Positions 13,930-35,166 of a stretch of 64,000 nt of DNA are shown piece by piece. The notes below the pieces were generated by a model. That model made no database searches. It was given only the letters and a program-made list of their open reading frames with translations, and was not told the DNA's origin. The translations under genes and the position numbers were made by a program. The DNA is from Escherichia coli (lineage in GTDB: Bacteria; Pseudomonadota; Gammaproteobacteria; Enterobacterales; Enterobacteriaceae), in assembly GCF_044324875.1 (NCBI RefSeq), contig NZ_CP172185.1; one strand, given 5' to 3'. Position 1 is the first letter of the stretch. Every line of letters begins with the position of its first letter.

Positions 13930-14249
13930 AAATGTTCCTCTTCTTATTGTACTTAATTCCAAAGTAATTTTACGAAGAGAAATAAGTGAATGTAAGTGAA
14001 GTTAGTCACATAAAGAGATAGCAGATTTAGCTAAAAAAGGGAAATAACAGTCCATGAAGCGTTGACATTACTTTCTATTCTACTAAGTAATTTCTCGACG
14101 ATAAACAACTAATCTATTGATATTTAATAAATTATTGTATTTTACTGACAAAATGCCGAATTGAGATCATAAATAATCATGCAACAGGTTATGCAAATGC
14201 ATAAATATGTGATGAATGTCACTTATTTATTTCAATAAATATATCGCCT

Positions 14250-14281
14250 AAAAACAACGCGGGGCAGGGAATGGCTGCCCC
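14250..14281 (-). terminator. intrinsic terminator downstream of ydeO
   Basis: Stem ggggcag / ctgcccc (14261-14267, 14275-14281) with 7-nt loop; T-rich tract on both sides (possibly bidirectional). Confidence 0.55.
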
Positions 14282-14330
14282 ATTTTAATTTTTACGTAGG
14301 GTGCGTGGTTGACTACTCGTTAGCAAATAA

Positions 14331-15092
14331 TCAAATAGCTAAAGCATTCATCGTGTTGCCCTTATTCATACCCGTGTGCCTTTGACAACGGTACTCCTTA
14401 GAAACTCTCTTTGGACTGTTGCCAAAATGTTTGCGGAACGCATAAATAAAATAAGATGTACTCGCATAACCACATTGTTCGGCAATTTTATTGACTGAAC
14501 CTTCTACGCGTATCAAATTTTTTGCGTGCTGCATTCTGGCATCTAAAAGAATCTGTGAGAATGTCGTTTGCTCTTGCTTTAGTTTTTTCTTCAACAGGCT
14601 TTCACTGATGTACAGGCAGTCACAAATATCTTTCAGCTTCCATGGGTGCGCCAGCTTCATGTTGACAATATTTCTCACTTTCCCGGAAACGGATAGCACA
14701 CCGTTAGTTAATAGTGTAATGAAACCTTTGCATGTGGCAAAAATAGACAGGCAAGAAAAAAGCAAAAGTTCTGAAAAATTATGATGATTGCGTTCTTCCG
14801 AGTTGAGATAAGCAATCATTTCATTAAGCAATCCAGTCGGTACATTTGAAGCACGTAAAAACTTCGCAGGAACAGGCACCGTCACTGTCTGGATGTTAGT
14901 GCATTGTAGATATTTTTTAATGGTATTTTCATTAAATCCGATTTCTTTGAAATGCCGCTCATAAGGTTCAAAATGCGTACGAACAGCGTTATCTACCATC
15001 AGGATCTCGCCGTCAGAGAAGGCGTAATCTTTATCTAAAATGTTAGCGTTGAAGGCATGATGAATAAATATAACAGAACAAACGAGCGACAT
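14331..15092 (-). CDS. ydeO: AraC-family acid-resistance regulator YdeO
   Basis: 253-aa ORF with C-terminal AraC-type helix-turn-helix; downstream of safA as in the safA-ydeO operon. Confidence 0.92.
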   Translation of the reverse strand: MSLVCSVIFIHHAFNANILDKDYAFSDGEILMVDNAVRTHFEPYERHFKEIGFNENTIKKYLQCTNIQTVTVPVPAKFLRASNVPTGLLNEMIAYLNSEERNHHNFSELLLFSCLSIFATCKGFITLLTNGVLSVSGKVRNIVNMKLAHPWKLKDICDCLYISESLLKKKLKQEQTTFSQILLDARMQHAKNLIRVEGSVNKIAEQCGYASTSYFIYAFRKHFGNSPKRVSKEYRCQRHTGMNKGNTMNALAI

Positions 15093-15166
15093 TTTATCTC
15101 CTTAAAACAATAAAGTTTTTATCGATACTTTTTTAACATTTCATATTTATAATTTGCTGTTTATTT

Positions 15167-15364
15167 TCAGTCTTGCAAACTATTGATAATGAAATGTGTA
15201 AGATCCCTTGCAATGCGCCCCATTTCTGAAATACCCAGCTGATCAATTGCCGAAAAAATGGCTATCAATGTAAGGGTCAGTAATAAGACAACCACAATTA
15301 CAGACATGATCCCTTTATAGTTGTCTCTTTGCGTGATTTTATTTTTCACTATGGTCGCATGCAT
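15167..15364 (-). CDS. safA: small membrane protein SafA (EvgS/EvgA to PhoQ connector)
   Basis: 65-aa ORF with a single hydrophobic transmembrane segment, immediately upstream of ydeO. Confidence 0.85.
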   Translation of the reverse strand: MHATIVKNKITQRDNYKGIMSVIVVVLLLTLTLIAIFSAIDQLGISEMGRIARDLTHFIINSLQD

Positions 15365-15465
15365 TTCAAATGTGTTTATTAAACGAATGACGTTAATCAG
15401 TATGCTTAATATAACAGGCTGGAGAATAGAGGAAATAGGACTGGCGCTTCAGTACTGAGCGGAGT

Positions 15466-15483
15466 TTCTTACAGCTGTAGGCG
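15466..15483 (-). promoter_or_regulatory. EvgA box upstream of safA
   Basis: TTCTTACA-GC-TGTAGGCG, an 18-bp inverted repeat of the TTCYTACA half-site type, about 100 bp upstream of the safA start; a near-identical copy is upstream of ydeP. Confidence 0.7.
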
Positions 15484-15601
15484 GAGGTATATATCTTATA
15501 ACGAGCAGTTTAATTTAGCACATGTGAGTAAATTGCGCGACAATGGTCAATGAGGAATTCTTCTGCTGTGCGGATGACAGCAGAAGAAATGAGGAGGCGA
15601 A

Positions 15602-17881
15602 TTAATTTGATGGTTCTAATTCAACCGGAATACTTTTATAGCCAGGAATGCCACTTAATGGATCGTGGTTATCAAGTGTTAGCATGTGATTCGATTCTGG
15701 AAAATAGGTCACCAGTGAGCGGTCAGCCATAGGGTAAATGACCACTTTTAATCTATCCATGCGGCGTGAGCTTCGCTTACCGTCTGGCGTAAGCGCAATA
15801 AGATTAACTCTTTCGCCGTTTTTTACACGGCAAATTTTAGCTTGTTTAGCACTCATAAAGACCACATCTCGTTGACCGAATACCCCTCGATAGCGATCAT
15901 CCATACCATAAATCGTCGTGTTGTACTGATCGTGACTGCGTACTGTCGCCATGACTAGCTTACTGTTAAACGCTGAAGAGGGATCTTCTAACAGCCCTTT
16001 ACTGGTAATGAAATTAGCCTTACCTGACGGCGTCATCCAGCGCCTTTCAGCAGCTGCGTTTATCAGGTGAAAACCTCCAGGATGTCGGATGCGCTGGTTA
16101 TAGTCGGCGAACTCTGGCAGCACAGCTTCAATGTCATTGCGAATGCGATCATAATCTTCCACCAGATACTCCCAGGCTACCACGCTCTGGGGTAGTGCCG
16201 CCTGCGCGATACCCGCGACCACTGCACACTCTGATTTCAGCATTACACCGGCGGGTTTTAACACGCCACGCGAGGCATGAATCATCGACATTGAATCCTC
16301 AACGGTTACCGCCTGCGCACCGCTTTTTTGCATGTCAATCTCGCTACGTCCCAGAACCGGCAGAATATAGCTATGCCGTGCGGTCAGCAGATGAGAGCGG
16401 TTAAGCTTAGTGGCTACGTGTACCGTCAGATCTAATTGTGTTAACGGTACAGCGCTTGCTTCCCGATCTGGCATTGCCAGTGCAAAGTTGCCCCCCATGC
16501 AGATCAATGCTCGAGCCTGCCTCGTACATATTGCTTGCATGCTGGCAATTGCTGCATGTCCAGGTGCATGAGGTGGGGTGAAACCATAGCGCTCACCCAG
16601 GCGAGCCAGAAACTCTGCAGACGGTTTCTCGGTGATACCGACGGTTCGGTCGCCCTGTACATTAGAGTGACCTCGTAGTGGGCAGATACCCGCACCAGGC
16701 TTGCCAATGTTACCTTTCATCAACAGCAGATTGACCAGTTGCTGTACATTCTGGGTACCATGTTCGTGCTGAGTGATCCCCATTCCGTAACAGATAATGG
16801 TGCGTTCGGCAGCGGCATATGCATCAGCCAGTTCGGCGATTTGAGTCTGACTTAGTCCAGAAATACGCTCGATATCTTTCCACTCGGAATTGAGAACGTC
16901 ACGGCGTAGCTCGTCAAAGCCGACGGTATGCGTTTGAATAAATTCGTCATCCAGCAATGAGGGCCGACCTGCGGCGCTTGCAGCATCATCGCGCTCAATT
17001 AACAGGCGCATCATCCCCTTGAGCAACGCCATATCACCACCAATGCGCACGTTGTAGTAGGCACTGGCCAACTGAGTCTCAGAGTTCGTCAGCATTTCAA
17101 ACGGGTTTTGCGGTGCGGTAAATCGCTCCAGGCCACGTTCCTGTAGAGGATTGATGGCGATCATTTTCGCTCCCCGTTTCACTAAAGCGCGCAACGAAGT
17201 CAACATGCGAGGGTGGTTTGTACCAGGGTTATGCCCAATGCAAATGACTAAATCGCATTTCTCAAAGTCTTCCAGCAACACGGTCCCTTTACCTACACCG
17301 ATACTCGCTGCCAAACCCACACTGGTCGGTTCATGGCACATGTTGGAGCAGTCGGGGAAGTTATTGCTCCCGTATTCACGAGCAAAAAGCTGATAAAGAA
17401 AGGCAGCTTCATTGGAAGTGCGGCCCGAAGTATAGAATTCAACCTGATTGGGATCACTATAGCTTTGAAGGCGTTCGCCAATTTCGTCGAAAGCTTGTTG
17501 CCAGCTTAATGGCTTGTAACAGTCGCTGACGGCATCATATTTCAAAGGCTGGGTGAGACGCCCCGCAGCCTCAAGCTCGTGATCTCCCCAGTTAAGTAAT
17601 GATTGAACCGTATTCTCAGCAAAGAAAGAGGCATTTACCTGCTTATCCGTGACTTCCCAGGCGATTGCTTTTGCGCCGTTTTCACAAATGTCGAATGACG
17701 CACTGTGCTTAGGATCTGGCCATGCACATCCCGGACAGTCAAAGCCCTCTGGCTTATTCATGTCAAACATGGCAATAACATCCTGGCGTATATCCATCTG
17801 CTTACGTACTGCATTCGCTACGGATTTAACAGCACCCCAACCACCGGCAGCTCCCTGGTAGGATTCAATTTTTTTCTTCAT
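15602..17881 (-). CDS. ydeP: molybdopterin oxidoreductase YdeP (formate-dehydrogenase-like, acid resistance)
   Basis: 759-aa ORF with N-terminal Cys cluster ([11 protein letters not shown]) and molybdopterin-binding domains. Confidence 0.92.
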
Positions 17882-18124
17882 TTGCTTATCCTGTGTGGAA
17901 ATGAATTATTAGGATTTGTAATAGCGATGATGCACAGTATATACAAAGGGATTATCGTCAACATGGATATATAAGAGTAGGGGACTACTCTCTTTCTATT
18001 TTAATCTATTATCGTTAAACAAAAGATTAAATACGATAAATTAAGCATCATCTCTCATAGTGTTTAAATTAACATATTTTTCAATATAAAAAATAAGACT
18101 CTGGCTTCAATTGTGCGCGGATTT

Positions 18125-18142
18125 TCTTACAGATGTAGGATA
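18125..18142 (-). promoter_or_regulatory. EvgA box upstream of ydeP
   Basis: TTCTTACA-GA-TGTAGGAT; shares 16 of 18 positions with the safA copy at 15466-15483. Confidence 0.7.
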
Positions 18143-18213
18143 ATAGCCTTCACAAAATAATTATCCGCGCAATCTTCGTGAATGGAGCGCATAGACCAAT
18201 GTCAAAATCACAA

Positions 18214-19128
18214 TTATTCATAGATAAAAGTGACACCAATGACTGACTGGACGGTTCCGGCTGCAACCTTGTTTCCTGTTTGTCCATAGGTTGCGCTTAA
18301 ACCCAGAGGTACTTTGCTTTTATTTACTGTCCCCAGGGAGACGTTTTCTCCCGTAGCCAGTATTTTTCCATTACGCATCAGAGAGACACCCACTCCCGAT
18401 GCTTTTGTTGCATCTGGTGCTGTGTTAGCAAACACTTGTCTGGCACTGTCAGTGGTAGCACCCGAAAGATAAAATGAGAGCTTTTGTTCACTTGAGCAAT
18501 ATACGCCAAGGGGTATTTCTGCGCTTCCAGGAAAGTCCGGGAGATTCACGTTGACATTACGACTATCAACGGTGCAGCCGCCTGTTGGCATAACAACACT
18601 GTTATTTGAAATAATATTCCACGTAAAATTACGCGGATTTCCACTTCCTAACGTGGCAATTTTATACATATGAATACGGGCAATAACTTCCCCGGCTTTT
18701 ATGACAACTCCACCGGCCGCACCGACTGGGGTAATATAGAGTTTTAACGGTAATGGCATCGGTGTCTTATCACCAATATCTAATACATTAGTATTTGTCG
18801 TCAACGGGAAGGGGTAGGTCACATTATTCCAGTACAGCGATCCTTTATATGACTGTAGAGAGCCTGCGAAAGCTGAGCCTTGTACCAGGTTTATATGATC
18901 AGTGTCGTACCAGCCGCCGTAATCATTCCAGCAACTTATATGCTGAGACAAGTCTACAACCAGATTCTGGCCCGGTTGTATTACAGGGTCGAGATTAACA
19001 TAAACAGAGGTTGTACCTGCTCCAATACTTGACCCGCCATCGACATTACAACTGAAGGCAAAAACTTTGCCTGCCATTAATAGAAGATAAATACCGAACA
19101 GAAGCTTCATACTTATTGTTTTACCCAT
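18214..19128 (-). CDS. ydeQ: fimbrial tip adhesin-like protein (FimH-like)
   Basis: 304-aa ORF with signal peptide and C-terminal pilin domain; last gene of the chaperone-usher operon. Confidence 0.85.
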
Positions 19129-19186
19129 GATATATCCTAAGGTTAAAAAATTGATTTAAAAAGAGGCTAAGAAAATCGAATCGACG

Positions 19187-19690
19187 TTATTGCCAGGTGT
19201 AGATCACATTGATTAGCGCCTCGATCGTTCCCTGGCTTGCGTTTCCATTCACCGTGATAGCTCTTGCCTTAAGTGGAAACTGTGCATTACGAGTGATCTC
19301 ATCAACAATAACCGTTTTGCTATCGCCATTTTTTAACGTCGCATCCTGGTCATCCCTTAGCTCTATCTGAATATTTTCGGCAGTACCTTCATTTTTGTAA
19401 TAACCCGTATTGTCAGTTGAACCTGTCACGATTGCCGTCACTGCACTTGTTTCAACCGGACAATCGGTTAATGACAAAGTAATATTGTGCCAGCCTGATG
19501 CAGAACCAGGTTGTTGCAGATTGCGCGTATAAAGATCCCCGAGATTAACGTTAGCTTCTTTGGTTTGAATAGTGCAGGGTTTAGCGACTACCCGACCATT
19601 AACAGTGATAGTGACATCGGCGGCCTGGAGAGTTGCTGTGAATAACGCGCAAAACGTAGCTAACAGGAACCTCTTGTGAAGTCTTTTCAT
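19187..19690 (-). CDS. ydeR: minor fimbrial subunit (FimG-like)
   Basis: 167-aa ORF with signal peptide, Cys pair and conserved C-terminal pilin strand. Confidence 0.85.
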   Translation of the reverse strand: MKRLHKRFLLATFCALFTATLQAADVTITVNGRVVAKPCTIQTKEANVNLGDLYTRNLQQPGSASGWHNITLSLTDCPVETSAVTAIVTGSTDNTGYYKNEGTAENIQIELRDDQDATLKNGDSKTVIVDEITRNAQFPLKARAITVNGNASQGTIEALINVIYTWQ

Positions 19691-19702
19691 ATCTGACTCT
19701 GA

Positions 19703-20233
19703 TTATTGAAATTCAAGGGTAAAGGTTGCCGAAGCCCTCACCAGTCCCGGATTGACGGACTTCTGAGTTGACTTCAGACGAGCGGAGTAAGGCAAAATAT
19801 TGTTCTGTTCTGGTACCAGTGGGATCCACTGCATCCCGGCATGAAGGTCATTCAATTTCACCGGACGCATATTTCCGTCCAGTATTTCTATACCCAAACC
19901 GGAGGCCGTATTGCTTCCTTCATCCAGTTTCAACAGAGTATTATTTTCTGCATCCTCAATCCCGTTAAATGCAACCCGAACCCCCGTTGTCCCTTTACTG
20001 CATTCACTTAACGTAATCTGAAAAGGGACGGCTGGACTTGTGCTACCGGTCGTTGGAAATTGTCTGGCACTGTATTTTTGGAGATCTACGGTAAAATTAA
20101 GCGAATCCGATGAGACTGTGCAGCCATAATCGAGGACGCGCCCGCTAATTTTAATAACGCTATCTGCGGATAAAGCAGAATAGGTGGTTAACCCCAGACA
20201 TAAACCGAGGAAAATAATGTTATTGTATTTCAT
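19703..20233 (-). CDS. ydeS: minor fimbrial subunit (FimF-like)
   Basis: 176-aa ORF with signal peptide and pilin fold features. Confidence 0.85.
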   Translation of the reverse strand: MKYNNIIFLGLCLGLTTYSALSADSVIKISGRVLDYGCTVSSDSLNFTVDLQKYSARQFPTTGSTSPAVPFQITLSECSKGTTGVRVAFNGIEDAENNTLLKLDEGSNTASGLGIEILDGNMRPVKLNDLHAGMQWIPLVPEQNNILPYSARLKSTQKSVNPGLVRASATFTLEFQ

Positions 20234-20246
20234 AATCTATTGTTCC

Positions 20247-22898
20247 TTAGCGACAGATTGCTGTCTGCTGGTTCAGTAAGGTACCAGGAGAAACTTCAGG
20301 AAGCTTGTACTCGACAATACAGTTTGAGTTTTTATCTTTGCCCCATGAAACCTGTAATTTCCCTGACTGTGGAAGTCCAGTCAGATAAACCTGACCGTTT
20401 TCCGCGACAATGCTGCCATTTTTATTCTTTCCGTGAGTGACAATTGCACCGAATGGAACGCTCTTATTACCGTACTTCAACGTCATTAATACTTTCCCGC
20501 CGATTTGTGCATTAAATGTTGCTCTGGCAATAGCACCGTGAGTTGGGATGACAGTGACCACGGTTTCATCCAGTTCAACATTATCTGCAAGGGAATTCGC
20601 GTTAAGAGCGACACGATTTTCTCTATATTCTGTCGCAAATGGTAATATGGCATAGCCACGCCAGTCGGTATGAATACCGGTCTGGTTCTCTATTTTGACA
20701 TTATCAGCGCCAGGAGCCTTAACCAGAACCATTGTGTCGCCCAGCGGCTGTCCAAAGGTGATGCCATCAGCATGAGCAATAATGCCACCACTCATTCCGT
20801 AATAAATCTGGCTGCTGTCACCACTCCGACTGTAACCGACATTCGTATTACCGTAAGCTCCACGATAATTAAGAGAACTGTAACCACTGGTGCCAGACGA
20901 TGTATTACCCCCGTGGGTGTTACCGACCTGAACACTATAATTCAGGTTATTATCCGGCAGCAGAGTGCCATAAACTCCCGATAGATTGGTCATGCCGCCT
21001 TTCAAATCGTTTGACTTACTGTAACTGGCGTTTGAATTACGAAATGCCGACTGACTGTCTGTACGCATCCAATGACTGAAGGGAACATTAAGCGTAAAAG
21101 CAAGTAAATGATCCCGATCGTTTTGCCATATATTATTGGAATAGCTGTAATTCAGCGAAGTCGTAATATCACCAAACGGCACATTTAATCCAAATGATAT
21201 TTGCTGGTCGCTGCGTGACGTGTTCCAGTAACTTTGGCGACTGGCACTAAAAAATGTCGTACCGTAATTTCCAAGCTGCTGAGAGATGCTTATTTGTTCC
21301 TGACCACGCTTACTGTAGAACAGATTAAAATAATCAATAAATTGTGTCTGCTCGTTGCTGTCTCCGGTAGGAGGCTTGACGGTGTAACCACTCATTCGAC
21401 TGTAGGCACTGTCGGATAAGTTATAAAAACCTTGCGTAGAATAGCGATATCCTGCGACCTGGATATTGGTTCCCGTCTGGTAGAAGGATTTGCTGTAGAC
21501 GGATTTAATCGATTGCCCGCTGTGACGGGTGCCATCTGCAAGTGTCGTATTGGCCTGCGTGATATCGAAAGAAAAGGCACCAAAAAGTCCTAAATCTTTA
21601 CCAATACCAAGGTTGAAGGCCTGATAATCTTCTGCAATTTGCATTCCGCCATAAGGTGTCCAGTTTCCTTCCAGTCCATGCATCAAGCTACCTTGTATGA
21701 ACTTGGGGGAGCTTTGCAGGTTATTTCCACTACGATATTCCCCCATGGCAAGCGCATAACGCGTATATCCAGCACGTTGGAGAACCGGAACAGACGAATA
21801 AGGAACATATAATGTCTGAATACTGCCGTCTGCCTCTTTTATGGTTACTTGCAGATCACCACCATTGGCCGCAGAGTTGATATCATCAATAGTAAAAGGG
21901 CCGGGTGGGACAGTAGTCTGATAAACATCGTATCCATTCTGTTTTACACTCACTTGTGCGGTGCCGCGGGCAATACCATGAATCACCGGAGCGAAACCAT
22001 GTTGGCTATCGGGCAACATCGCTTCTGTTGAATTTATTTTGAGGCCACGAAAGTTCACACTATCAAAAATATCGCCATCGGTATAACTATCACCTACCGT
22101 TAAGCGTGAGCGTAAGGGAATAATGTCACGTTCAGCCGACGTATTGATATGCTGCCATTTATTGCTGTCAGATGAATTGCTACTCCCACTGTTATAACTC
22201 CACGTTGAGTTATCGCGCAGTCGCCAACTACCAATGTTGATGCCACTCTGTAAATTCAAATATGCATAGTTGGATTTTCCTGCATTATGGTTACTACGAT
22301 TATTAATAGAATTACCATTAAAACTATAGTTTAGAAGCCCAGCATTTATTCCTTCTTCCCACAGATCAGGAGAAACATAGCCGCGAGCCATTCTGCCAAC
22401 ATAAATTTGCGGAACGGAGAGTGACAGATGTTGCTGACCAACATCAAACTCAGTTGATGCGTCGGCCAAACGATCCTGAAGTGGTGTGCATGCGCTGTTG
22501 TCCGGCACATGTTTTTCTGCCGAATGTTCTTTATTGTCTAATAACGCTGATTTTTTTATGCCAAGACTGACTAGAAGATCTGTACTCAGGCATGGGATGA
22601 GATCTGCGTTATTATCATCTGCAATAAAAGTAATATCCCGACTAGTAATAAATTCGTCGTTCAAATAAATGTCGACCCGATATGTACCAGGTGGTGCCTC
22701 GCGTCCCTTAGTAAAGGCGGATAAATCGACAGATTCAGCAAGATCATTGCTTAAAAACCGTGGATTAAAATAATACTCTGCGTCAACGGGAAATACCGCA
22801 GTTGCTAAGCCAAGGGCAATGGTAAGCCGTGCAAAGCGAGGCAGTAGTAACACCTGATGCATACGATATGCCTTAAATGCGGCACGAAAGGCTGTCAT
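20247..22898 (-). CDS. ydeT: fimbrial outer-membrane usher, full length (FimD-like)
   Basis: 883-aa uninterrupted ORF of typical usher length; start may be at the internal MHQVLLL. The K-12 counterpart ydeT is remembered as a truncated pseudogene. Confidence 0.85.
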   Translation of the reverse strand: MTAFRAAFKAYRMHQVLLLPRFARLTIALGLATAVFPVDAEYYFNPRFLSNDLAESVDLSAFTKGREAPPGTYRVDIYLNDEFITSRDITFIADDNNADLIPCLSTDLLVSLGIKKSALLDNKEHSAEKHVPDNSACTPLQDRLADASTEFDVGQQHLSLSVPQIYVGRMARGYVSPDLWEEGINAGLLNYSFNGNSINNRSNHNAGKSNYAYLNLQSGINIGSWRLRDNSTWSYNSGSSNSSDSNKWQHINTSAERDIIPLRSRLTVGDSYTDGDIFDSVNFRGLKINSTEAMLPDSQHGFAPVIHGIARGTAQVSVKQNGYDVYQTTVPPGPFTIDDINSAANGGDLQVTIKEADGSIQTLYVPYSSVPVLQRAGYTRYALAMGEYRSGNNLQSSPKFIQGSLMHGLEGNWTPYGGMQIAEDYQAFNLGIGKDLGLFGAFSFDITQANTTLADGTRHSGQSIKSVYSKSFYQTGTNIQVAGYRYSTQGFYNLSDSAYSRMSGYTVKPPTGDSNEQTQFIDYFNLFYSKRGQEQISISQQLGNYGTTFFSASRQSYWNTSRSDQQISFGLNVPFGDITTSLNYSYSNNIWQNDRDHLLAFTLNVPFSHWMRTDSQSAFRNSNASYSKSNDLKGGMTNLSGVYGTLLPDNNLNYSVQVGNTHGGNTSSGTSGYSSLNYRGAYGNTNVGYSRSGDSSQIYYGMSGGIIAHADGITFGQPLGDTMVLVKAPGADNVKIENQTGIHTDWRGYAILPFATEYRENRVALNANSLADNVELDETVVTVIPTHGAIARATFNAQIGGKVLMTLKYGNKSVPFGAIVTHGKNKNGSIVAENGQVYLTGLPQSGKLQVSWGKDKNSNCIVEYKLPEVSPGTLLNQQTAICR

Positions 22899-22939
22899 TA
22901 TTAATTCCGATTGAGTTTATTATTAATTAGGTCACTGGC

Positions 22940-23659
22940 TTACTGCATGGTTGCCTTAATACGCGGAGTTAATGCACCGTAATCATTGATCGTCTGAAAA
23001 CTGATATCCCCGGTTGCAGCATGCGGGATATCCACCGATACTTCACCTTTTGGCGGCACCATGGTGTTTGGGAGATTGCTATTTCCTGCTTTCAAATTTG
23101 TTACGGTAATGAAGTAGGGCGTTGGATTAATAAGAGTGAGTTTGCTGCCGCTGCGACGAAACCGAAGCATTGCAGGCGCTTCTTCAGGTGCCATTGCCAG
23201 GTTCGTGGGGCGATAAAACATTTTTATGCGGCTAATAATTGCCAGCTGTAATGTATTCTCATTCTTCTGATCTTTTTCCATAGCAGGAATAGCTTTAACA
23301 TTAACCCAGAACAGGCTTTCACGGTCGCCTGGTAACTGATGATTAGTGGCGTTGATTATCCGCAGCGTATTCTCTTTTTTACCTTGCATGGAAAAAAGCG
23401 GTGGCGTAATGACAAACTGGGTGTCTTTTTGGTCACCTGCATTTTCTATCCATGACTGAATGAGATAGACACTGGCAGGATCATTATTCGTGACAGGCAA
23501 TAAAACCTGTTTCTGGTTTGCCGGATAAATTACCCGCGTCGCACCCAGTGCGACAGCTGCGTTGGCAATGGTGCTATGGCAAGCAAAGAGCAATAAAAGT
23601 AACACTGTCGCCATAAAGGAAATAGAGTAGGGGGTACGCGTAGTTTGCATCTGATGCAT
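22940..23659 (-). CDS. periplasmic fimbrial chaperone (FimC-like)
   Basis: 239-aa ORF with signal peptide and PapD-like chaperone features; start codon uncertain. Confidence 0.85.
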   Translation of the reverse strand: MHQMQTTRTPYSISFMATVLLLLLFACHSTIANAAVALGATRVIYPANQKQVLLPVTNNDPASVYLIQSWIENAGDQKDTQFVITPPLFSMQGKKENTLRIINATNHQLPGDRESLFWVNVKAIPAMEKDQKNENTLQLAIISRIKMFYRPTNLAMAPEEAPAMLRFRRSGSKLTLINPTPYFITVTNLKAGNSNLPNTMVPPKGEVSVDIPHAATGDISFQTINDYGALTPRIKATMQ

Positions 23660-24012
23660 TCTCCATGTGTTAAGAGGATAAGCGGGAAAACCGTTACATC
23701 AGACAATCAGTAAATATTGCTAATACATTGGCGACTCGCCGGGTTTCCAGACTTAATGCGTTTGTAATAAATGTTGGTTCTCTTTTAATAGGAAAACCTT
23801 GCTACAAAGTAAATATTTTAAATAACAGTAAGTTTAACTACTGTTGTTTATTGATCGTTTAGATATTATGTGATTTTTTCATACCGCTCCAAAACACAAA
23901 CTATTCCTCATTAATAATGAGATGAACATTGGTGAATTGCTCGGGTGTGCGTAGCCATGCTACACACACCCTGTTTCAATTTCAGATGACGTATAGCCAC
24001 CTTAAGATTGAA

Positions 24013-24576
24013 TTATAGATATTGAACTTTGAAGGTCGCATCAGCGTTTGCAGTACCAGCTACTGACTGCCCGAGAGCAATATATCGAGCCTGGAACGGC
24101 AATATATTCGTGCCATCAATCAAGTCAGTTTTAGCACTAAAAGTGGCACCATCAAGTATTAATACCTCACCCGTACGGTCCAAAATTTGAATACCGACAT
24201 TTTGGGCAGAGCCTGCCGCTGAACTCTGAAGCGCTAATGTGTCGTCATTACTGGTGACAGTAGTACCCAGGAATGCAACAGCTGCATTACTGGAAACATT
24301 GGTATCACAATCATTCAGCTTGATATTGAAGCCAACGGCGGAGCTGAGGTCACCCGCTTTAGCCAGACGAGAAGAACGGACCTGACCCAGCTCAACCGTT
24401 TGGTTCATTGATTCTGAATCAATCGCACAAGCGGCATTTACCACTTCACCTTTAAAATGAATAACACCGCCATTAACAGTGGTCGTTACTGATTCATCAC
24501 CCTCGGCTGCGCTTACCGCAGCAGACGACATCGCCAACACAGAAACGACAATCATACCGACATGTTTGAGTTTCAT
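24013..24576 (-). CDS. major fimbrial subunit (FimA-like, F9-type)
   Basis: ORF track start 24624; start [23 protein letters not shown] at 24576 preferred (signal peptide, GGAG RBS upstream); C-terminal ...TFKVQYL pilin strand. Confidence 0.85.
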
Positions 24577-25009
24577 AATTCTCCAAAATTTATATTTAAG
24601 TAGCTGAATAAAGAAAGTTAACAATTAAGTCATTCTGTTATTGCTTATAAAACAAGAATCATTCTTGATGGGATATTGCCCTGAGAATATAGTTTCCAGG
24701 GTTATTACATTTCACGAAGAACGATAATATCTTTAAATTACAAGGACACCTAATCACAACAAGTTTATTGCAGCACTTGTTGTAGAGAGTATTTGCAAAG
24801 ACATTTTATGTCGCTAAATAACATTACGATTTCATTATGCATGTTATTTATAAACAGCGACTAAACAGAATATTATTGCGAACAAGGGAAGTGTCAGGAA
24901 AGGTCAAGAGCGGCCAATGGTTTATATGGCTATAAAACATTAGCTATGGTTAATGTTTGCCTGGTGTAACTAACACGGAATTGCTCTAAACAGATAAGTG
25001 CAGGGTTTA

Positions 25010-25264
25010 TTAAAGCTGACCGACAGACTTTCTTAACCTGGTAATATCTCTCTTAGGTGACTCTCCAAACATCCGCGAATATTCCCGACTGAAATGGGAT
25101 AAGCTTTCGTAACCGACAGCATAGGCTGCAGTGGTGACATCGTAATGTTCATTCAGCATCAGTCGCCTGGCTTCATTGAGGCGTAGCCATTTCTGATACC
25201 GGAGTGGACTCATTCCCGCAAGCTGTCTGAATTGTTGATGGAAAGAGGGGGTGTTCATTTGCAC
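25010..25264 (-). pseudogene. yneL: AraC-family regulator remnant (C-terminal HTH only, yneL-like)
   Basis: 84-aa ORF containing only the second AraC HTH region (…GMSPLRYQKWLRLNEARRLM…); no N-terminal domain is encoded upstream in frame. Confidence 0.7.
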
Positions 25265-25544
25265 GCGGTTTGCCAGCCTGACTCTTCAACGCAGGGAAGA
25301 TGCGGCAAACGGCAAACCTGCATACCAGCCAGCCTATATCAGGTATGCACAGGCCAATCATGAAAGAGGAGAGGCTTTATGTTCTGGAACCCTGAAGTAA
25401 TAACGACGACCGTAAAATCGCTTCGCATCACTCAAATTCCATTTAACTATTCTGGGTTTGAGGGATATACATAATTGACTTCAGCACCAGAAACAGCATA
25501 ACAAACTGTTTTAAATGGATATTAATCAAATGACGATTCAAACT

Positions 25545-25579
25545 CACAGTTATGAACTCAGTTTTGGTTCATAACTGTG
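25545..25579. repeat. perfect 13-bp inverted repeat with 9-bp spacer
   Basis: cacagttatgaac-tcagttttg-gttcataactgtg; a related palindrome gttcatgaac lies at 25619-25628. Located between the AraC remnant and the accessory cluster. Confidence 0.6.
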
Positions 25580-25678
25580 TTAAACGCTGTCCATAAATCA
25601 CTCGATGTCACGTCTGTTGGTTCATGAACTGATCGTTCTAATTTTGTGATGTGCGTCAGGTTTTAGTGTTCAGTAATG

Positions 25679-26482
25679 TTACCTTTTACTCGATGATCGA
25701 TTGTTTAGCACCTCTCCCACAACCGGAGCAGCGGTAAATGCGTTTGGCCAGCCAGCATAGAAGGCGGCCTGGGTAACGATCTCACCAGCTTCCTCAACAG
25801 AAAGTCCATTATCCATTGCTCTATTGAGGTGATAGCCAATCTGCGCGCTCTGTCCGGATGCGATTAAGGCGCTGACCGTAATCAGGCTTCTGTCGCGGGG
25901 TTTCAGCGCGGGTCTTTGCCAGAGATCCAGGAAGAGTGGATCAGCAGTGAATTTAACCAGGCCTGGAGATATTGGGCCAACATTTTTTTCCACTGTCTCT
26001 GAACGCTGCTTTTCTGCTTCCTGATTGAGAGGAAGCAGGCCCGGAGAAGCTTCAGGAAGTGCATCTGCCGTGACGCCACGAGTTTCAAATACTGCTTTGA
26101 TCACGCTGACGGCTGACATTGCATTTGGCCAACCTGAGTAGAACGCCAGATGGGTAATGATTTCTGATAATTCCGCTGGCGTCACGCCGCTATCGAGAGC
26201 GACGTCAATATAGTGCTTAAGCTCGGCAGGCTGGTTGCGGGCAATCAGCATGGCGACGGTCACCACACTACGATCCCTCGGTGAGAGGGCGTCGCGTGTC
26301 CACAGATCTTCAGTAATAGCTTCGCGACCAAAGCGCGCGAGAGCCGGTGAGACGGAACGAATATCAGCTTCCGAAATCGCTGACGGTTCTATTTTCATCA
26401 TAGCTTTACCTCTTGTTTCCTCAGCATTGGCAAAATCAGAAATAACAAGCGACATAGCCGCTGCTGCAAGTACGCTTTTCAT
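25679..26482 (-). CDS. secreted tandem carboxymuconolactone-decarboxylase (CMD/AhpD-like) domain protein
   Basis: 267-aa ORF; signal peptide MKSVLAAAAMSLVISDFANA; two internally repeated ~100-aa CMD-like domains (DLWTRDALSPRDRS… and DLWQRPALKPRDRS…). Confidence 0.8.
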   Translation of the reverse strand: MKSVLAAAAMSLVISDFANAEETRGKAMMKIEPSAISEADIRSVSPALARFGREAITEDLWTRDALSPRDRSVVTVAMLIARNQPAELKHYIDVALDSGVTPAELSEIITHLAFYSGWPNAMSAVSVIKAVFETRGVTADALPEASPGLLPLNQEAEKQRSETVEKNVGPISPGLVKFTADPLFLDLWQRPALKPRDRSLITVSALIASGQSAQIGYHLNRAMDNGLSVEEAGEIVTQAAFYAGWPNAFTAAPVVGEVLNNRSSSKR

Positions 26483-26497
26483 GTTAATCCTTACTGG

Positions 26498-27223
26498 TCA
26501 ACGTTGCGGCTCCTGTTTGATTCCGCCTTTGTTACGAAGAAATACCGGTTTTACCGGGATTGCGTCCTTCCTGGCGCTCATATGCGCCGTTTGCCTGAGG
26601 TAATCCAGGATGTGCAGCGTTTGTCGGTGCAGTTGATAATCCTCCTCACTGGCGTAAATCTCATAGAAATACCAGCGTTTTGGAGTCTCTGAATCTGTAC
26701 CGGCATACATGGCTAACACGCCTTTCTCTACTTTGAGCGACTCGACCATTTCAGGAAGGACGATGTTTCTAAATTCGCTCTGAAATTCAGGCTTTACTTC
26801 GACGATCACCAGATTATTGATAGTTCGTTCATTCGGTATGATGTGTTTGTCGCCCAGAAACTGTGGCTCCAGGGTAATTTTCTTCTTCCTGTCAATAATG
26901 TCAGGTGCACGAGCAGCGAATGCTTTGTATGGGGCGGCATTGAGATGTTTGCGATAAGCACGCTCATTTTCATAGAGTTCGAACATGAATGCCTGACCTG
27001 AATTGTCGCTGCGTTGCAGGGCATACATCGCCAGTGTACCTGCTTCATGATCAACCGAAGCGGAAATCGTCTGTCTGGCCACGTCTGCAAAGTCGTTGTC
27101 CCGATCGGGTCTGATGCCGAGCTCGAAGATATTCATCTCCGACTTATTCGGCGCGTCCGGTTTTGTTGCAAAGACAGGGCTGCTTATTAGCATGCAAATT
27201 AAAAGCATAAAAGTCTTTTTCAC
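26498..27223 (-). CDS. secreted tandem ABM (antibiotic-biosynthesis-monooxygenase / quinol-monooxygenase-like) domain protein
   Basis: 241-aa ORF; signal peptide MKKTFMLLICMLISSPVFA; two ABM-like halves (LAMYALQ…FELYENERAYRKH and LAMYAGT…YEIYASEEDYQLH). Start is GTG at 27223 or ATG at 27208. Confidence 0.75.
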   Translation of the reverse strand: MKKTFMLLICMLISSPVFATKPDAPNKSEMNIFELGIRPDRDNDFADVARQTISASVDHEAGTLAMYALQRSDNSGQAFMFELYENERAYRKHLNAAPYKAFAARAPDIIDRKKKITLEPQFLGDKHIIPNERTINNLVIVEVKPEFQSEFRNIVLPEMVESLKVEKGVLAMYAGTDSETPKRWYFYEIYASEEDYQLHRQTLHILDYLRQTAHMSARKDAIPVKPVFLRNKGGIKQEPQR

Positions 27224-27338
27224 GATGATCTTTTTACTGACGTTACTGTTTAAGACGTTCGATCAACTGGTGCTGGTAAGAACGTAACCGACCGCTACTG
27301 GCGCTCTCAAAGACGAGAGGAGGAAAAGTGAATAAGGG

Positions 27339-30317
<2,979 letters not shown>

Positions 30318-30319
30318 TG

Positions 30320-30892
30320 TTATTCTCCCTCTGGATTATTCACGACGGAATTGAGCAGTTCGACAAGCCTTGAAGCGTGTTCCCGGGCAAGCGTTTTTTG
30401 CTGCGCGATTTTGTCGGCATCCCGGTCGGCATAGCTGATACCGCAGGTATAAACCGGCGTCAGCAGCTCAAGATTGCACAGCCTTGCCGTGGTTTCGAAC
30501 GGAATAAGATACTCTTCAATGGTATGGCCAAAGAAACTGTCGACGGTATAGAGCTCCTCTGGCGCTCCCGTTGTAAAGGAGAGGATCAGCTTTTTACCGC
30601 CCAGTTTCGCCGTTGAGCCATGCGCGAAGCCGTGAACAAAGACCTCGTCCAGCCATTTTTTCATTAATCCTGGCAGCCCATACCAGGAAAAAGGGAACTG
30701 CCAGACAATCACATCGGCCCTGAGCAGGCTTTCCTGCTCCGCCGCGATGTTGAATTTGCCATCCGGATAGAGCCTGTCCAGACGACGAATCTCAACATCA
30801 GGAAGGGCGGTCTCCACTTCATCAAGAATAGTGGCATTGGCGACGGAATGGGTAAGCTCAGGATGACCTGAAATAACAAGGATATTTTTCAT
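30320..30892 (-). CDS. flavodoxin-like NAD(P)H:quinone oxidoreductase (KefG/KefF/MdaB-like)
   Basis: 190-aa ORF MKNILVISGHPE…; resembles KefG-type quinone reductases; stop is 2 bp upstream of the disrupted AKR start (same operon). Confidence 0.75.
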   Translation of the reverse strand: MKNILVISGHPELTHSVANATILDEVETALPDVEIRRLDRLYPDGKFNIAAEQESLLRADVIVWQFPFSWYGLPGLMKKWLDEVFVHGFAHGSTAKLGGKKLILSFTTGAPEELYTVDSFFGHTIEEYLIPFETTARLCNLELLTPVYTCGISYADRDADKIAQQKTLAREHASRLVELLNSVVNNPEGE

Positions 30893-31041
30893 TTCAATCA
30901 GTTAAACATCTTTGGTGAATATTAAATCCAGTATAGAGTGACAACATTATTTTTTTAGAGCAGTAAAGACTCATTCACTTTTAGACAAAAACTAATAATG
31001 GTCAACTGTTCTCATTGTACCGGTCATCACGAACCCGTGAA

Positions 31042-31718
31042 CTACGCCGTGATGCCCAGTAAACGTTCTGCATTGCGAAATGCGATGGCCTCTTTTTCAG
31101 CCTTGTTGACGGGCAGACTGTCTATAAAGGTTTTTACACCGTCCAGGGTCTGATAGGGATAATCGACGGAGAACAGGATCCTTTCAGCACCCATTAACGC
31201 GTAGATAAACTGGAAGTGCGGCAGTGTTAGCATATGGCGGGGTAACGTAAACGTGTTCCTGGAAGGTTCTCGTTAGCGTGCGTGACAGACCCGTTGCAGC
31301 CAGTGGTAGGCTGTCATCAAGACGCTGGAGCCAGAAGGGTAACATCTCCCCCCAGTGGCCACTGATTACCTGCAGGTTGGGATATTTATCAAATGCGCCC
31401 GATAACATCAGCCGCAACAAATGGATCCCCGCTTCGTGATGCCAGCCCCAGGCAAACATAGAAAGCCTGGCGTTGACCTCTGCGCTGAAGCCCGTGAAGT
31501 AGGCCTGCTGTACGCTTTTAAGCGGTAACCCGGGATGAAGATAGAGTGGCACATTCAGTTTATTAAAGCGGGAAAGCAGGGAGTCGGTCAGGATTATGAC
31601 CATCAGCGACGGTTTTCCCCCAGTCGCCAAGGAAAGGTGCCTGCTCAAGCGCAACAGGCATACACGCTCGCCCTAACTCGCTGTCGAGATAATGTTCTTC
31701 GAGGCAAATGATTTTCAT
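31042..31718 (-). pseudogene. amidohydrolase-2 family (ACMSD / gamma-resorcylate decarboxylase-like) gene remnant
   Basis: Three consecutive frames carry pieces of one protein: MKIICLEEHYLD… (from 31718), …LYLHPGLP…GWHHEAGIHLLRLMLSGAFDKYPNLQVISGHWGEMLPFWLQR…, …ERILFSVDYPYQ…; at least two frameshifts and an apparently shortened N-terminal region. Confidence 0.7.
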
Positions 31719-31820
31719 ATTCTCACCATTCATACAAAGCAGTAAAAGTGATACAGATTAGAATCACCCGGAACAGCCCGTTCGTGTGTGTCATTCATGA
31801 CAGTCTGTTCCGGACGGGCT

Positions 31821-32768
31821 TTACACCATCGGTTTTTCCCAGGCGCCTCGTGTATCCACTCTGGTCTCTGCGGCGAGTTGTTCCAGCAGGATGATTTCCT
31901 CATCGCGTAACTGGATGTCTGAAGCGCAGGCGGCGTCCAGAACGTGATGGACTTTAGTCGCACCAACGAGGGGAAGGGTACCTTTCGCAATAGCCCATGC
32001 GATGGCTATCTGTGCCACGCTGGCATTCCTTTCGGCTCCCATTTTTTTCATGGCGGCGGTTAGTCTTTCTATCTGCGGCAGTACTGCGTTATAACTTTCG
32101 GCCCGGCCACTCCCGGCAGGCATGGGATGATTTGAATCATAACGACCACTGAGCGCGCCTTGCTCCAGGACCATGTAAGCAAAGAACGTGATGTTATTTT
32201 GTCGGCAATAATCAAGGATCCCGGCCTCTTCAGAAGCGCGATAGAGCAGGCTGTAGTGATTTTGTACTGCACTGAGGGAATAACCGGAAGCGTTAAGGAT
32301 TTCATTGGCGCGTCTGATTTGTGCCAGATTGTGGTTGGAAACACCTACGCGTTTTACCTTACCGCTTTGTAAAAGTGGGATCAATCCTGGCGTCCATTTT
32401 TCGACGTCGAGGGGATTATGGATCCAGTAGATATCAATCGCGTCCACGCCCAAGCGCCCAAGGCTGGCCTCAAGCATATCGCTGACAGGCTGCGCAGACT
32501 GCTTGTCCGCAATCTGCGGCGTGAATTTGGTGGATAAAATTATGTTCTCGCGAGGAAACTGACGGACTAATGCTCCCAGCGCAGTCTCGGAACTCCCCAT
32601 ACCATATACTGCTGCGGTATCCCAGAGATTGAGGCCCTTACTCATGGCCGCAGTGAACACTTCTGCCATCTGAGTATCAGAAAGATGATTACCAAAGACG
32701 GTGTCGCCGCCGGCAAAGCCTGTGCCCCAGGACCATGTACCTAGTGCGACTGGAGGTAGTGTTTTCAT
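31821..32768 (-). CDS. aldo-keto reductase (intact)
   Basis: 315-aa ORF MKTLPPVALGTWSWG… with AKR family features throughout. Confidence 0.85.
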   Translation of the reverse strand: MKTLPPVALGTWSWGTGFAGGDTVFGNHLSDTQMAEVFTAAMSKGLNLWDTAAVYGMGSSETALGALVRQFPRENIILSTKFTPQIADKQSAQPVSDMLEASLGRLGVDAIDIYWIHNPLDVEKWTPGLIPLLQSGKVKRVGVSNHNLAQIRRANEILNASGYSLSAVQNHYSLLYRASEEAGILDYCRQNNITFFAYMVLEQGALSGRYDSNHPMPAGSGRAESYNAVLPQIERLTAAMKKMGAERNASVAQIAIAWAIAKGTLPLVGATKVHHVLDAACASDIQLRDEEIILLEQLAAETRVDTRGAWEKPMV

Positions 32769-32829
32769 ATTCAGCTCCTGAAAAAAGGCCGGATCGTGGC
32801 TGACTTAAACCGGCCAAGTAAGGAATTAA

Positions 32830-33531
32830 TTAAGCTGTCCGGCGGAGTGCATTTAACAGCGCCACACCAACCCCATGTGCTGAAGCGGGATTCTGCCCCG
32901 TGATAAGGCGATCGTCGGTAACCACGTTTTCAGACCAGTTTGGAGCTTCATGATAAAGCGCACCATGCTCGCGAAGTGCGGTTTCAAGCAGGAAGGGAAC
33001 CACATCTGTTGTGTGAACTTCTTCCTCTTCCTTGTTGGTAAAGGCCGCCACATTTTTCCCTTTTATCAGGTATTCGCCGCTACTGAGTTTTGCGTCAACC
33101 AATGCCGCAGGCCCGTGGCAGACGGCTGAGACAATCCCATCACTTTCATACACTTCGCGGATAATACGCTGGGCATCCTGATTATCACGGAAATCCCACA
33201 TGGTCCCATGACCACCTGCAAAGAAAACTGCGCTGTAATCGGCACCTTTCAGCTCGGATAACGCAGGTGTTGTTGCCAGGCGCTGCTGAAAATCGGTTTC
33301 GTTCCAGTACCAGGCGTTAACAGGGTCGCTGAGGTTAAATCCATCCACCGGTGGCTGCCCCCCGCGAATACTGGCTATTGTTGTTTTTATTCCGGCATCT
33401 TCCAGTACTTTCAGCGGATGAGTCAGCTCGGCCAGGAAAAAACCGGTTGGTACACCGGATGCGCCTTTAATCGGATGGCTGGAAACGACACATAGCACTG
33501 GTTTATATGCAGGTTTCATATCGGTCCTCAC
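32830..33531 (-). CDS. DJ-1/PfpI family protein (class I glutamine amidotransferase-like; glyoxalase/deglycase candidate)
   Basis: 233-aa ORF with the nucleophile elbow …SAVCHGP… typical of DJ-1/PfpI proteins. Confidence 0.8.
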   Translation of the reverse strand: MRTDMKPAYKPVLCVVSSHPIKGASGVPTGFFLAELTHPLKVLEDAGIKTTIASIRGGQPPVDGFNLSDPVNAWYWNETDFQQRLATTPALSELKGADYSAVFFAGGHGTMWDFRDNQDAQRIIREVYESDGIVSAVCHGPAALVDAKLSSGEYLIKGKNVAAFTNKEEEEVHTTDVVPFLLETALREHGALYHEAPNWSENVVTDDRLITGQNPASAHGVGVALLNALRRTA

Positions 33532-33839
33532 TCTTTATTTTTAAATTCATCGGCGAAGAGATTTTCCCAGTTAATAAAGGAGCCAAGCGGTATACACTCG
33601 AAGCTTAGTAAGCCTGCTTTTGCCAACGGGAATTCGGCCATAACGTTCATCGCTTCATCGACAGAGTCACATTCAAGAAAAATAGCGACGCCAGGTCTGT
33701 CCTGACGGAAGTAGATGTCGCGGATGAAGCCTGATTTATACAATCCCCAGGCGTGCAGAGCTTCAGCGTTGAGGTGCGGAGCATATTTCTCCAGCGATGC
33801 TACAGGGGCAGGGATATCCAGACATAAAATTCGCATCAT
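33528..33839 (-). CDS. small Dabb-fold protein (muconolactone-isomerase-like / YciI-like)
   Basis: 103-aa ORF; stop overlaps the DJ-1 start by 4 bp (translational coupling); AGGAG RBS upstream; family call is by pattern and is approximate. Confidence 0.6.
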   Translation of the reverse strand: MMRILCLDIPAPVASLEKYAPHLNAEALHAWGLYKSGFIRDIYFRQDRPGVAIFLECDSVDEAMNVMAEFPLAKAGLLSFECIPLGSFINWENLFADEFKNKE

Positions 33840-33975
33840 AGTCTCCTGAACTCAGGTCGTAGTAGAAAGAGACTAAAGTATAAGAGGCGTATTTCAGGAA
33901 GATTAGAGGGTCATTGACTTAAGCATTTTTAGACTGTACTTAATAATCAGGCGAGAATTGCTTTAGGAAAACATT

Positions 33976-34875
33976 ATGAATAACGCTCTTTATAACCAGA
34001 TTCGCATCTTCCAGAGCATTGCGCGGGAGGGCAATATTTCGGCAGCCGCAAGGAAACTGGAAATTACGCCTCCCTCCGTCAGCAATGCACTAAAGCTGCT
34101 GGAAGAGTATATCGGTCATCCGCTTTTTGTGCGTACGACCCGCCGTATAGAGCTGACGGAAACCGGTCAATTATTGCTGGAACAGACCGCTGCGGCGGTG
34201 GAGTCGCTGGAAAACTCACTTGAAAGCATTCGCGACCAGCATCAGGAGCCCTCAGGGATGGTGCGAATTACGCTCTCGCGTTTTGCCTACCTGTTAATTC
34301 TTAAGCCTGCGATGGCAGAATTCTGTCAGCAATATCCGGGTATACAGTTAGAAATTTCGGTCTACGACGGTACCGTGAATATCATCAAAGAGCGTTTTGA
34401 TCTGGGGATCCGTTTTGGCGATATTCTTGAGGGAGGGGTGGTGGCCCGACCGTTAATGAAACCGTTTCGTGAAGGATTATATGCATCCTCAGCGTATCTC
34501 TCCCGACATGGAACGCCTGAAGTGCCGGCAGATCTCTGTCATCACCAGCTGATTGGTTACCGTTTTATCACCAACAACCGCATCCTTCCGCTGCTCCTGA
34601 ACGATCGCGGTGAGCAGTTGACCGTTGAGATGCCGGGGCAGTTAATCAGCAACGATATTGACGTTATGGCAGACGGGATCCGTAACGGGCTGGGAATTGG
34701 GCGCTTGTTTGAGCCTGTCTGGCAGTTACAGCCGGACAGGGAGCGCTTTATTCCGGTGATGGAGAGCTACTGGAAAACCTACCCGCCAGTGTATCTCTAT
34801 TACCCCAAAAACGCGGGTAAAACGAAAAGAGTGAAGGCCCTGATTGATTTTCTGATATCCACTACGGGGCGATAA
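33976..34875 (+). CDS. LysR-family transcriptional regulator
   Basis: 299-aa ORF with N-terminal LysR HTH (…IFQSIAREGNISAAARKLEITPPSVSNALKLLEEYIGHPLFVR…); divergent from the minus-strand enzyme cluster across a 136-bp intergenic region. Confidence 0.88.
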   Translation: MNNALYNQIRIFQSIAREGNISAAARKLEITPPSVSNALKLLEEYIGHPLFVRTTRRIELTETGQLLLEQTAAAVESLENSLESIRDQHQEPSGMVRITLSRFAYLLILKPAMAEFCQQYPGIQLEISVYDGTVNIIKERFDLGIRFGDILEGGVVARPLMKPFREGLYASSAYLSRHGTPEVPADLCHHQLIGYRFITNNRILPLLLNDRGEQLTVEMPGQLISNDIDVMADGIRNGLGIGRLFEPVWQLQPDRERFIPVMESYWKTYPPVYLYYPKNAGKTKRVKALIDFLISTTGR

Positions 34876-35166
34876 AGACGATAACGCCTCGTTCGGTATG
34901 GAGATGCATCGAATGGCATTGTGAGTTTTTTTTCACAGATGGGCGTAATCGTCAGTGGATTTTACATACAAGGATAGCGCCCACATACTGACATCATTAA
35001 TTAACGTTGGGTGAGGTTTACCGGGGGGAGGGGAAAGCGAACCAGGAGATGGAGGTGGCCAATCTGGTACGAACCGCCGCGTAGCTTGCACGGCAAAAGC
35101 TGCTGACTGATTCATCAGTTAAGCTACTGAAAGAGCGGAACACATGAACTTAAGAACAAACCCACC

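Follow-up and report, generated by a model that had tools for sequence, protein, structure and literature searches.

Two near-identical EvgA boxes with conserved half-sites in the safA-ydeO and ydeP promoters of an Escherichia coli strain

The DNA analysed here, in the following called the window, is a stretch of 64,000 nt from Escherichia coli which harbors the genes ydeO, safA and ydeP in the same orientation (Table 1). Annotated E. coli chromosomes on which ydeO, safA and ydeP (minus strand) as well as ydeQ are named match the locus at 99.7% identity, and among 5,426 complete genomes of E. coli, 5,314 contain it. This identity, together with the Pfam domains of the gene products, bears out the gene names assigned in a preliminary description of this DNA. 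The genes safA and ydeO form an operon and are co-transcribed (PMC9496106). The evgAS genes, in K-12 about 0.9 Mb away from the locus, would be located outside the 64-kb window. In the interval separating ydeP from the safA promoter, a stable 12-bp hairpin is found 14 nt past the ydeP stop. It resembles a terminator without a U-run (-19.6 kcal/mol, z = -5.1), and both of its arms are kept in 12/12 of the Escherichia genomes compared below, including the divergent genome L013.

Table 1. Coordinates of the genes, boxes, promoter elements and leaders at the safA-ydeO and ydeP locus, numbered from the first position of the window
Feature	Position	Strand	Remarks
ydeO CDS	14331..15092	-	253 aa, AraC-family regulator; Pfam AraC-type HTH
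safA CDS	15167..15364	-	65 aa, two-component connector; Pfam SafA E = 2e-46
safA 5' leader, predicted	15365..15401	-	~37 nt; length depends on the inferred TSS
safA core promoter	15401..15465	-	between box and predicted TSS
safA extended -10	TG 15416-15415, TATATT 15413-15408	-	TGtTATATT, 15416-15408
EvgA box, safA-ydeO promoter	15466..15483	-	gene strand CGCCTACA-GC-TGTAAGAA
Hairpin downstream of ydeP	15558..15588	-	
ydeP CDS	15602..17881	-	759 aa; Pfam molybdopterin oxidoreductase
ydeP 5' leader	17882..18058	-	177 nt, 30.5% G+C, predicted structure
ydeP core promoter	18058..18123	-	same box-to-(-10) register as the safA promoter
ydeP extended -10	TG 18074-18073, TAATTT 18071-18066	-	TGtTAATTT, 18074-18066
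EvgA box, ydeP promoter	18124..18141	-	gene strand ATCCTACA-TC-TGTAAGAA

Given the positions of the minus-strand open reading frames, each of the two boxes lies upstream of its gene. By exact pattern search and direct reading of positions 14400-18400, TTCTTACAGCTGTAGGCG was located at 15466-15483 and TTCTTACAGATGTAGGAT at 18124-18141 of the plus strand. The two sequences are identical at 15 of 18 positions, with the mismatches at position 10 in the spacer and at the outer positions 17 and 18. On the gene strand, both boxes take the form (N2)CCTACA-N2-TGTAAGAA, in which the perfect half-site adjoins the promoter and the distal half-site is imperfect (5/8 and 6/8 matches to TTCTTACA). Measured against the 18-bp inverted repeat TTCYTACA-N2-TGTARGAA, the ydeP box shows one mismatch and the safA box two. 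Half-site mutations reportedly abolish EvgA-dependent induction. The promoter-side edge of the box is separated from the A of the start codon by 102 bp in the case of safA (15466 to 15364) and by 243 bp in the case of ydeP (18124 to 17881). The preliminary description had quoted two near-identical boxes in the same orientation relative to their genes, with the ydeP copy about 240 bp from the start codon, and all of this holds. Its coordinates were correct for the safA box, whereas the ydeP box, which it had placed at 18125-18142, lies one base lower. The common orientation is meaningful despite the near-palindromic sequence, because the perfect half-site faces the gene in both promoters and ungapped similarity is found on that side only. 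In the safA-ydeO spacer, a consensus scan allowing up to three mismatches found no EvgA box.

The 16-mer common to both boxes, TTCTTACAGNTGTAGG, is found at two places in the window but in 0/100 dinucleotide-preserving shuffles. A search of the window with the degenerate consensus TTCYTACANNTGTARGAA and up to three mismatches likewise yielded two matches, namely both boxes, against 0.58 expected. This number is reached in 11/100 shuffles, so the consensus is a weak test which is not significant on its own in the window, and a test by weight matrix was therefore needed. In the evgAS region of K-12, a consensus scan gave four matches against 0.2 expected, and no shuffle reached four. One of these sites is located in the emrK/evgA intergenic region, one upstream of frc and two in the upstream region of yfdX; a consensus of the TTCYTACA type could be re-derived independently from them. 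At emrK and at the proximal yfdX site, the better half-site is likewise the one on the promoter side. The weight matrix was created from these four K-12 boxes, all outside the safA/ydeP locus (emrK, frc and yfdX twice), and the test does not depend on any consensus stated beforehand. In a scan of the complete 64-kb window, the ydeP box ranked first with 21.4 bits and the safA box second with 17.2 bits, followed by the next best site with 9.0 bits; 0/30 shuffled windows reached 17.2 bits. Each of the two promoters thus contains a single high-scoring box in the matrix scan. Upstream of gadE in K-12, no box was found at up to three mismatches, so that the strict consensus misses some reported EvgA targets.

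The copies at the homologous positions of K-12 are TGCCTACAGCTGTAAGAA (safA) and AGCCTACACCTGTAAGAA (ydeP). Around the boxes, the alignments of the window with K-12 are 93% (safA) and 98% (ydeP) identical, and within the boxes only the spacer and the two outermost bases differ. In detail, the spacer of the ydeP box reads TC in the window and CC in K-12, and the outer distal bases also differ. According to Masuda and Church (2003), EvgA is said to recognize the consensus TTCPyTACA in an 18-bp inverted repeat, and in that study and the one by Itou et al. (2009) EvgA boxes were reportedly placed at the ydeP, b1500/safA, emrK, yfdX and frc promoters of K-12. The exact pattern CCTACANNTGTAAGAAANTCCGC, searched in one genome per species, was detected in three contigs only, all of them Escherichia DNA; this narrow distribution is that of the exact pattern, diverged copies being outside the reach of such a scan.

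The intergenic regions upstream of safA and upstream of ydeP were aligned across 12 genomes, comprising the window, K-12, strain 118UI, eight further E. coli genomes spanning the identity range, and L013, a divergent Escherichia genome only 84% identical over the locus. The half-site columns (CCTACA and TGTAAGAA) are variable at 0/14 positions in the safA box and 1/14 in the ydeP box, and those of the 2-bp spacer at 1/2 and 2/2 positions, respectively. In the 63 bp between box and start site, 17/63 columns are variable for safA and 15/63 for ydeP; in the 63 bp beyond the box, away from the promoter, the corresponding values are 39/63 and 26/63. For both boxes pooled, variation thus affects 1/28 half-site columns as opposed to 3/4 columns in the spacers and 41-62% of those in the distal flank. 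As variation is also seen in the two bases at the distal end of the 18-mer, the constrained unit comprises 6+2+8 bp. Half-sites that remain invariant around a drifting spacer are, judged from the alignment, the signature expected of a dimer operator.

Between box and gene, both promoters carry an extended -10 element, TGnTATATT for safA and TGnTAATTT for ydeP, which is kept in 12/12 genomes. Only the position n varies, and only in L013, where it has changed from T to C in the safA element. At emrK, frc and the proximal yfdX site as well as at safA and ydeP, 51-53 bp separate a hexamer resembling a -10 region from the edge of the box that faces the promoter, and the safA and ydeP promoters are without a good -35 region. 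From the position of the -10 element, transcription of safA is predicted to start near A15401, which would center the box at about -73.5. For ydeP, the predicted start is A18058 with the box centered at about -74.5, and this position is supported by a published leader boundary (PMC11210196). A geometry of about -74 would be compatible with activation of the class I type, that is by contact with RNA polymerase.

With respect to the regulator, the preliminary description had proposed that EvgA controls safA-ydeO and ydeP. This proposal is sustained both by the recurrence of the motif at other promoters of the regulon and by reviews reporting direct action. EvgA contains a Response_reg and a GerE (LuxR-type HTH) domain according to Pfam, and its nearest solved relative, EvgA itself aside, is NarL. 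In the NarL family, a phosphorylated dimer binds inverted half-sites. Direct binding of EvgA has been described for the safA-ydeO promoter (PMC9496106), and EvgA directly controls ydeP as well as emrKY (PMC8174306; PMC7174508); these three papers also document that the induction of safA-ydeO and ydeP depends on EvgA. Of the genes switched on when EvgS is constitutively active, every direct target of EvgA carries an EvgA site, and the remainder lack one (PMC4283999). The two boxes are therefore very probably EvgA operators at the safA-ydeO and ydeP promoters, where the identification of the 18-bp boxes with the published EvgA footprints draws on reviews and on the TTCPyTACA consensus.

A different occupant of the boxes, or of the conserved AANTCCGC found directly on the promoter side of both, would be RcsB, alone or as a heterodimer with EvgA, instead of the EvgA homodimer alone. 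RcsB and EvgA are related in sequence (E = 6e-14), the loss of RcsB abolishes the acid induction of ydeP (PMC7174508), and safA is under RcsB control independently of GadE (PMC5651002). A passage in PMC5651002 attributes the speculation about an RcsB-EvgA heterodimer to Johnson et al. 2011. Further space for a second protein would be offered by the conserved blocks TCCGC, TGAAG and AGTCYTATTT between box and -10 element, of which AGTCYT also occurs at emrK in the same register. However, the motif goes specifically with the EvgA regulon, direct binding of EvgA is stated in the reviews, and the symmetric conservation of the two half-sites fits a homodimer. Furthermore, no match to the 14-bp RcsAB box (TAAGAATATTCCTA-like) was found at up to three mismatches within 15365-15601 or 17882-18213, and an RcsAB-box reading of the safA and ydeP promoters was dropped for lack of a pattern match; the eight matches in the whole window are not above chance. 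We thus consider it unlikely that RcsB takes the place of the EvgA homodimer. Since RcsB is needed for the acid induction of ydeP and safA, EvgA may nevertheless not act alone, and RcsB or a heterodimer may contribute in addition to the EvgA homodimer, though not in its place.

A promoter scan gave a sole sigma-70-like match upstream of ydeP, TTGAAG-16-TATATT at 18110-18083 (9/12 positions), which would shift the box to a position near -56 and extend the leader to about 195 nt; the elements TTGAAG and CTGAAG occur in the same register in the two promoters. Yet the scan delivered fewer promoter-like sites than shuffled sequences (4 vs 6.0), the extended -10 elements are those kept throughout the alignment, and the published leader boundary at -178 fits the downstream -10 (PMC11210196). 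This promoter was rejected as very unlikely because its safA counterpart has a poor -10 (TCTATT, or TCTTTT in K-12) which is variable among E. coli and lost in L013 (TCCTGT).

From box to start site, the safA and ydeP promoters are identical at 41/63 positions in an ungapped comparison (65%; binomial P ~8e-11), a value reached by 0/100,000 shuffles, whereas other promoter pairs of the regulon show 12-27/63 identical positions in the same comparison. The identity amounts to 70% in the first 30 bp from the box and 60% in the next 30 bp, compared to 20% on the distal side. It is this shared stretch that leads down to the extended -10 element in both promoters and so places each box near -74. A similarity extending so far past 18 bp is what a promoter duplication would give, but it is hardly credible that the boxes are a mere relic of such an event, or chance, without binding function: the matrix from unlinked promoters without flanking similarity scores both far above the rest of the window, their half-sites are conserved while the spacers drift, and their common 16-mer is absent from all shuffles.

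The distance between the ydeP box and its gene had been taken to imply a long leader, and this agrees with a 2024 study, according to which the K-12 ydeP leader spans -178 to +10 (PMC11210196). The boundary at -178 corresponds to A18058 in the window, and the leader comprises 177 nt instead of 178 nt because this strain is without one leader base. For safA, the predicted leader of the window is 10 nt shorter than that of the ten remaining E. coli genomes in the alignment. The predicted fold of the ydeP leader has a minimum free energy of -35.5 kcal/mol (z = -2.94); the pairings predicted for this leader include a GAGAUGAUGC/GCAUCAUC helix as well as an AUCCU/AGGAU pairing which would mask the Shine-Dalgarno sequence. 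A consensus fold of eight distinct ydeP leaders contains a long-range helix, invariant even across diverged intervening sequence, and a hairpin with one compensatory pair. A scan of 14000-18400 with the Rfam covariance models at E up to 1 gave no match, the ydeP leader included. As covariation is minimal, the evidence for a functional RNA is weak. The combined proposal that the blocks between box and start are contacts for RcsB or the alpha subunit of RNA polymerase and that the ydeP leader is a functional RNA appears rather doubtful. The blocks concerned are AANTCCGC, TGAAG and AGTCYTATTT in the 63-bp module of safA and ydeP, which may be undescribed; if the proposal were true, the structured leader might gate ydeP translation.

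Taken together with the binding of H-NS to ydeO and ydeP promoter fragments (PMC2984483), the following course of events is the most likely. At mildly acidic pH (about pH 5.5), EvgS would phosphorylate EvgA, and an EvgA dimer would occupy the inverted repeat CCTACA-N2-TGTAAGAA at about -74 with one subunit per half-site. EvgA would then recruit or stabilise sigma-70 RNA polymerase at an extended -10 promoter without a usable -35 region, by which H-NS silencing of the AT-rich region would be overcome. Three products would result: SafA as the link to PhoQ/PhoP, YdeO as an activator of gadE, and YdeP, which serves in acid resistance.

The EvgA boxes at safA and ydeP are real, were correctly interpreted, and are already known; being textbook-level knowledge of E. 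coli acid resistance, they add no new biology. The value of the analysis lies in the annotation of a non-K-12 strain, in which both promoters with their probable transcription starts, as well as the leader of ydeP, can be positioned to the base. The strain keeps the cis-elements linking EvgS/EvgA to SafA with its PhoQ/PhoP cross-talk, to YdeO with the gadE cascade, and to YdeP. In addition, the invariant half-sites around a drifting spacer provide an operator footprint at the population level, and a real operator proved recognisable from sequence alone.

In comparison with known systems, the closest counterparts are the EvgA boxes of K-12, which have the same sequence, the same genes and the same side of the gene, although relative to K-12 the window has lost 10 bp of the safA leader and 1 bp of the ydeP leader. 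Operators of the NarL/FixJ type, such as the 7-2-7 heptamers of NarL, share with the EvgA boxes the inverted half-sites, the 2-bp spacing and a dimer with a GerE/LuxR-type HTH. The NarL half-site, TACYYMT, differs in sequence from that of EvgA, and NarL arrangements are varied, in contrast to the fixed position near -74 predicted for EvgA. The RcsB/RcsAB box and the GAD box of GadE-RcsB are likewise bound by proteins of the superfamily to which EvgA belongs and are part of one acid-resistance network with the EvgA boxes; TAAGAA in the promoter-side half-site of EvgA is similar to the RcsAB box in its left half. The EvgA box is set apart from the RcsAB box by its 2-bp spacer and its TACA/TGTA core, and a full RcsAB match is present in neither promoter. 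Finally, BvgAS of Bordetella is a homologue of EvgAS, and BvgA sites, too, are inverted repeats, of a heptad-like type and placed upstream of the core promoter, from which a phosphorylated dimer of the NarL family activates sigma-70 RNA polymerase. BvgA promoters usually contain several cooperative sites reaching the -35 region, whereas safA and ydeP have one high-scoring box each.

The ydeP leader (177 nt from the start site A18058, taken from the published K-12 leader boundary) is predicted to fold with -35.5 kcal/mol and is more stable than shuffled sequences (z = -2.94). In the predicted structure, a long-range helix joins GAGAUGAUGC, close to the 5′ end, to GCAUCAUC.C, some 120 nt further along the leader, and the Shine-Dalgarno sequence AGGAU of ydeP is paired with AUCCU. 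Neither arm of this helix varies among eight distinct leaders, including that of a lineage with 84% identity, in which the sequence between the arms has diverged while the arms themselves are unchanged. In addition, one compensatory AU-to-CG change, common to the two strains L011 and L012, occurs in a hairpin that spans approximately +30 to +55. A match to the ydeP leader was not found in Rfam.

Two further elements were observed within the leader. A mini-ORF of five codons (ATG AGA GAT GAT GCT TAA) begins with the +1 base of the inferred ydeP transcript, and the divergent genome L013 shows 100% conservation of it. The mini-ORF may be coincidental, since the identical bases constitute one arm of the long-range helix. 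The hairpin AGAGUAG-UCCC-CUACUCU resembles a terminator when read on the plus strand, with CTTTCTATTT directly after it, but no plus-strand gene ends at this position.

Positions of the features within the window
Feature	Position	Strand
Segment missing from L013	11062-14205	
Deletion in the safA leader	15396/15397	
safA core promoter	15401-15465	
safA EvgA box	15466-15483	
Equivalent of the GMM076 IS5 site	15515-15518	
Hairpin 3′ of ydeP	15558-15588	minus
ydeP leader	17882-18058	minus
Terminator-like hairpin	17974-17991	plus
Mini-ORF	18041-18058	minus
ydeP core promoter	18058-18123	
ydeP EvgA box	18124-18141	
Segment missing from L013	about 18250-35150	

Some papers describe ydeP-safA-ydeO as a single operon. 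A perfect 12-bp stem, UUCUUCUGCUGU/ACAGCAGAAGAA, is located 3′ of the ydeP stop codon (-19.6 kcal/mol, z = -5.1), and its arms are kept in all 12 genomes; the hairpin lacks a U-run and is therefore not a canonical intrinsic terminator. In E. coli GMM076 (locus L016), an IS5 element lies 32 bp distal of the safA EvgA box, which is intact despite the insertion, and strain ET776 also carries IS5 in the ydeP-safA region. The safA leader of the window strain lacks 10 bp that are present in all ten other E. coli compared, including the 99.7%-identical strain 118UI. At this site K-12 has TTAACGATTT flanked by two TTAACG repeats. Since the predicted start site lies upstream of the deletion, the leader is reduced to about 37 nt, compared with about 47 nt when the 10 bp are present.

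The genome L013 (NZ_JAATUR010000028.1) is labelled E. coli but shows just 84% identity over ydeO-safA-ydeP. It encodes a divergent SafA of 63 aa, has CCTACG as the distal half-site of its ydeP box, and lacks two segments of the window which include the ydeQ-side fimbrial genes. A contig from a MAG designated ‘Candidatus Nanosynbacter sp.’ (L014, JARKOR010000108.1) matches 12.8 kb of the window, both EvgA boxes included, with 97.7% identity, and a contig of the ‘uncultured bacterium UMGS1713’ assembly (L015) matches with 96.9%; the two contigs are apparently E. coli DNA that was assigned to other genomes during binning.

Comparison of the two core promoters with the K-12 loci L002 and L003 revealed a fixed register common to the EvgA-regulon promoters. 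Positions +9/+10 past the EvgA box are CA in five of five promoters, and a hexamer resembling a -10 element is located 51-53 bp past the box. At +24 to +29, safA, ydeP and emrK share AGTCYT, whereas frc and yfdX have CTCTCTGATT in its place.
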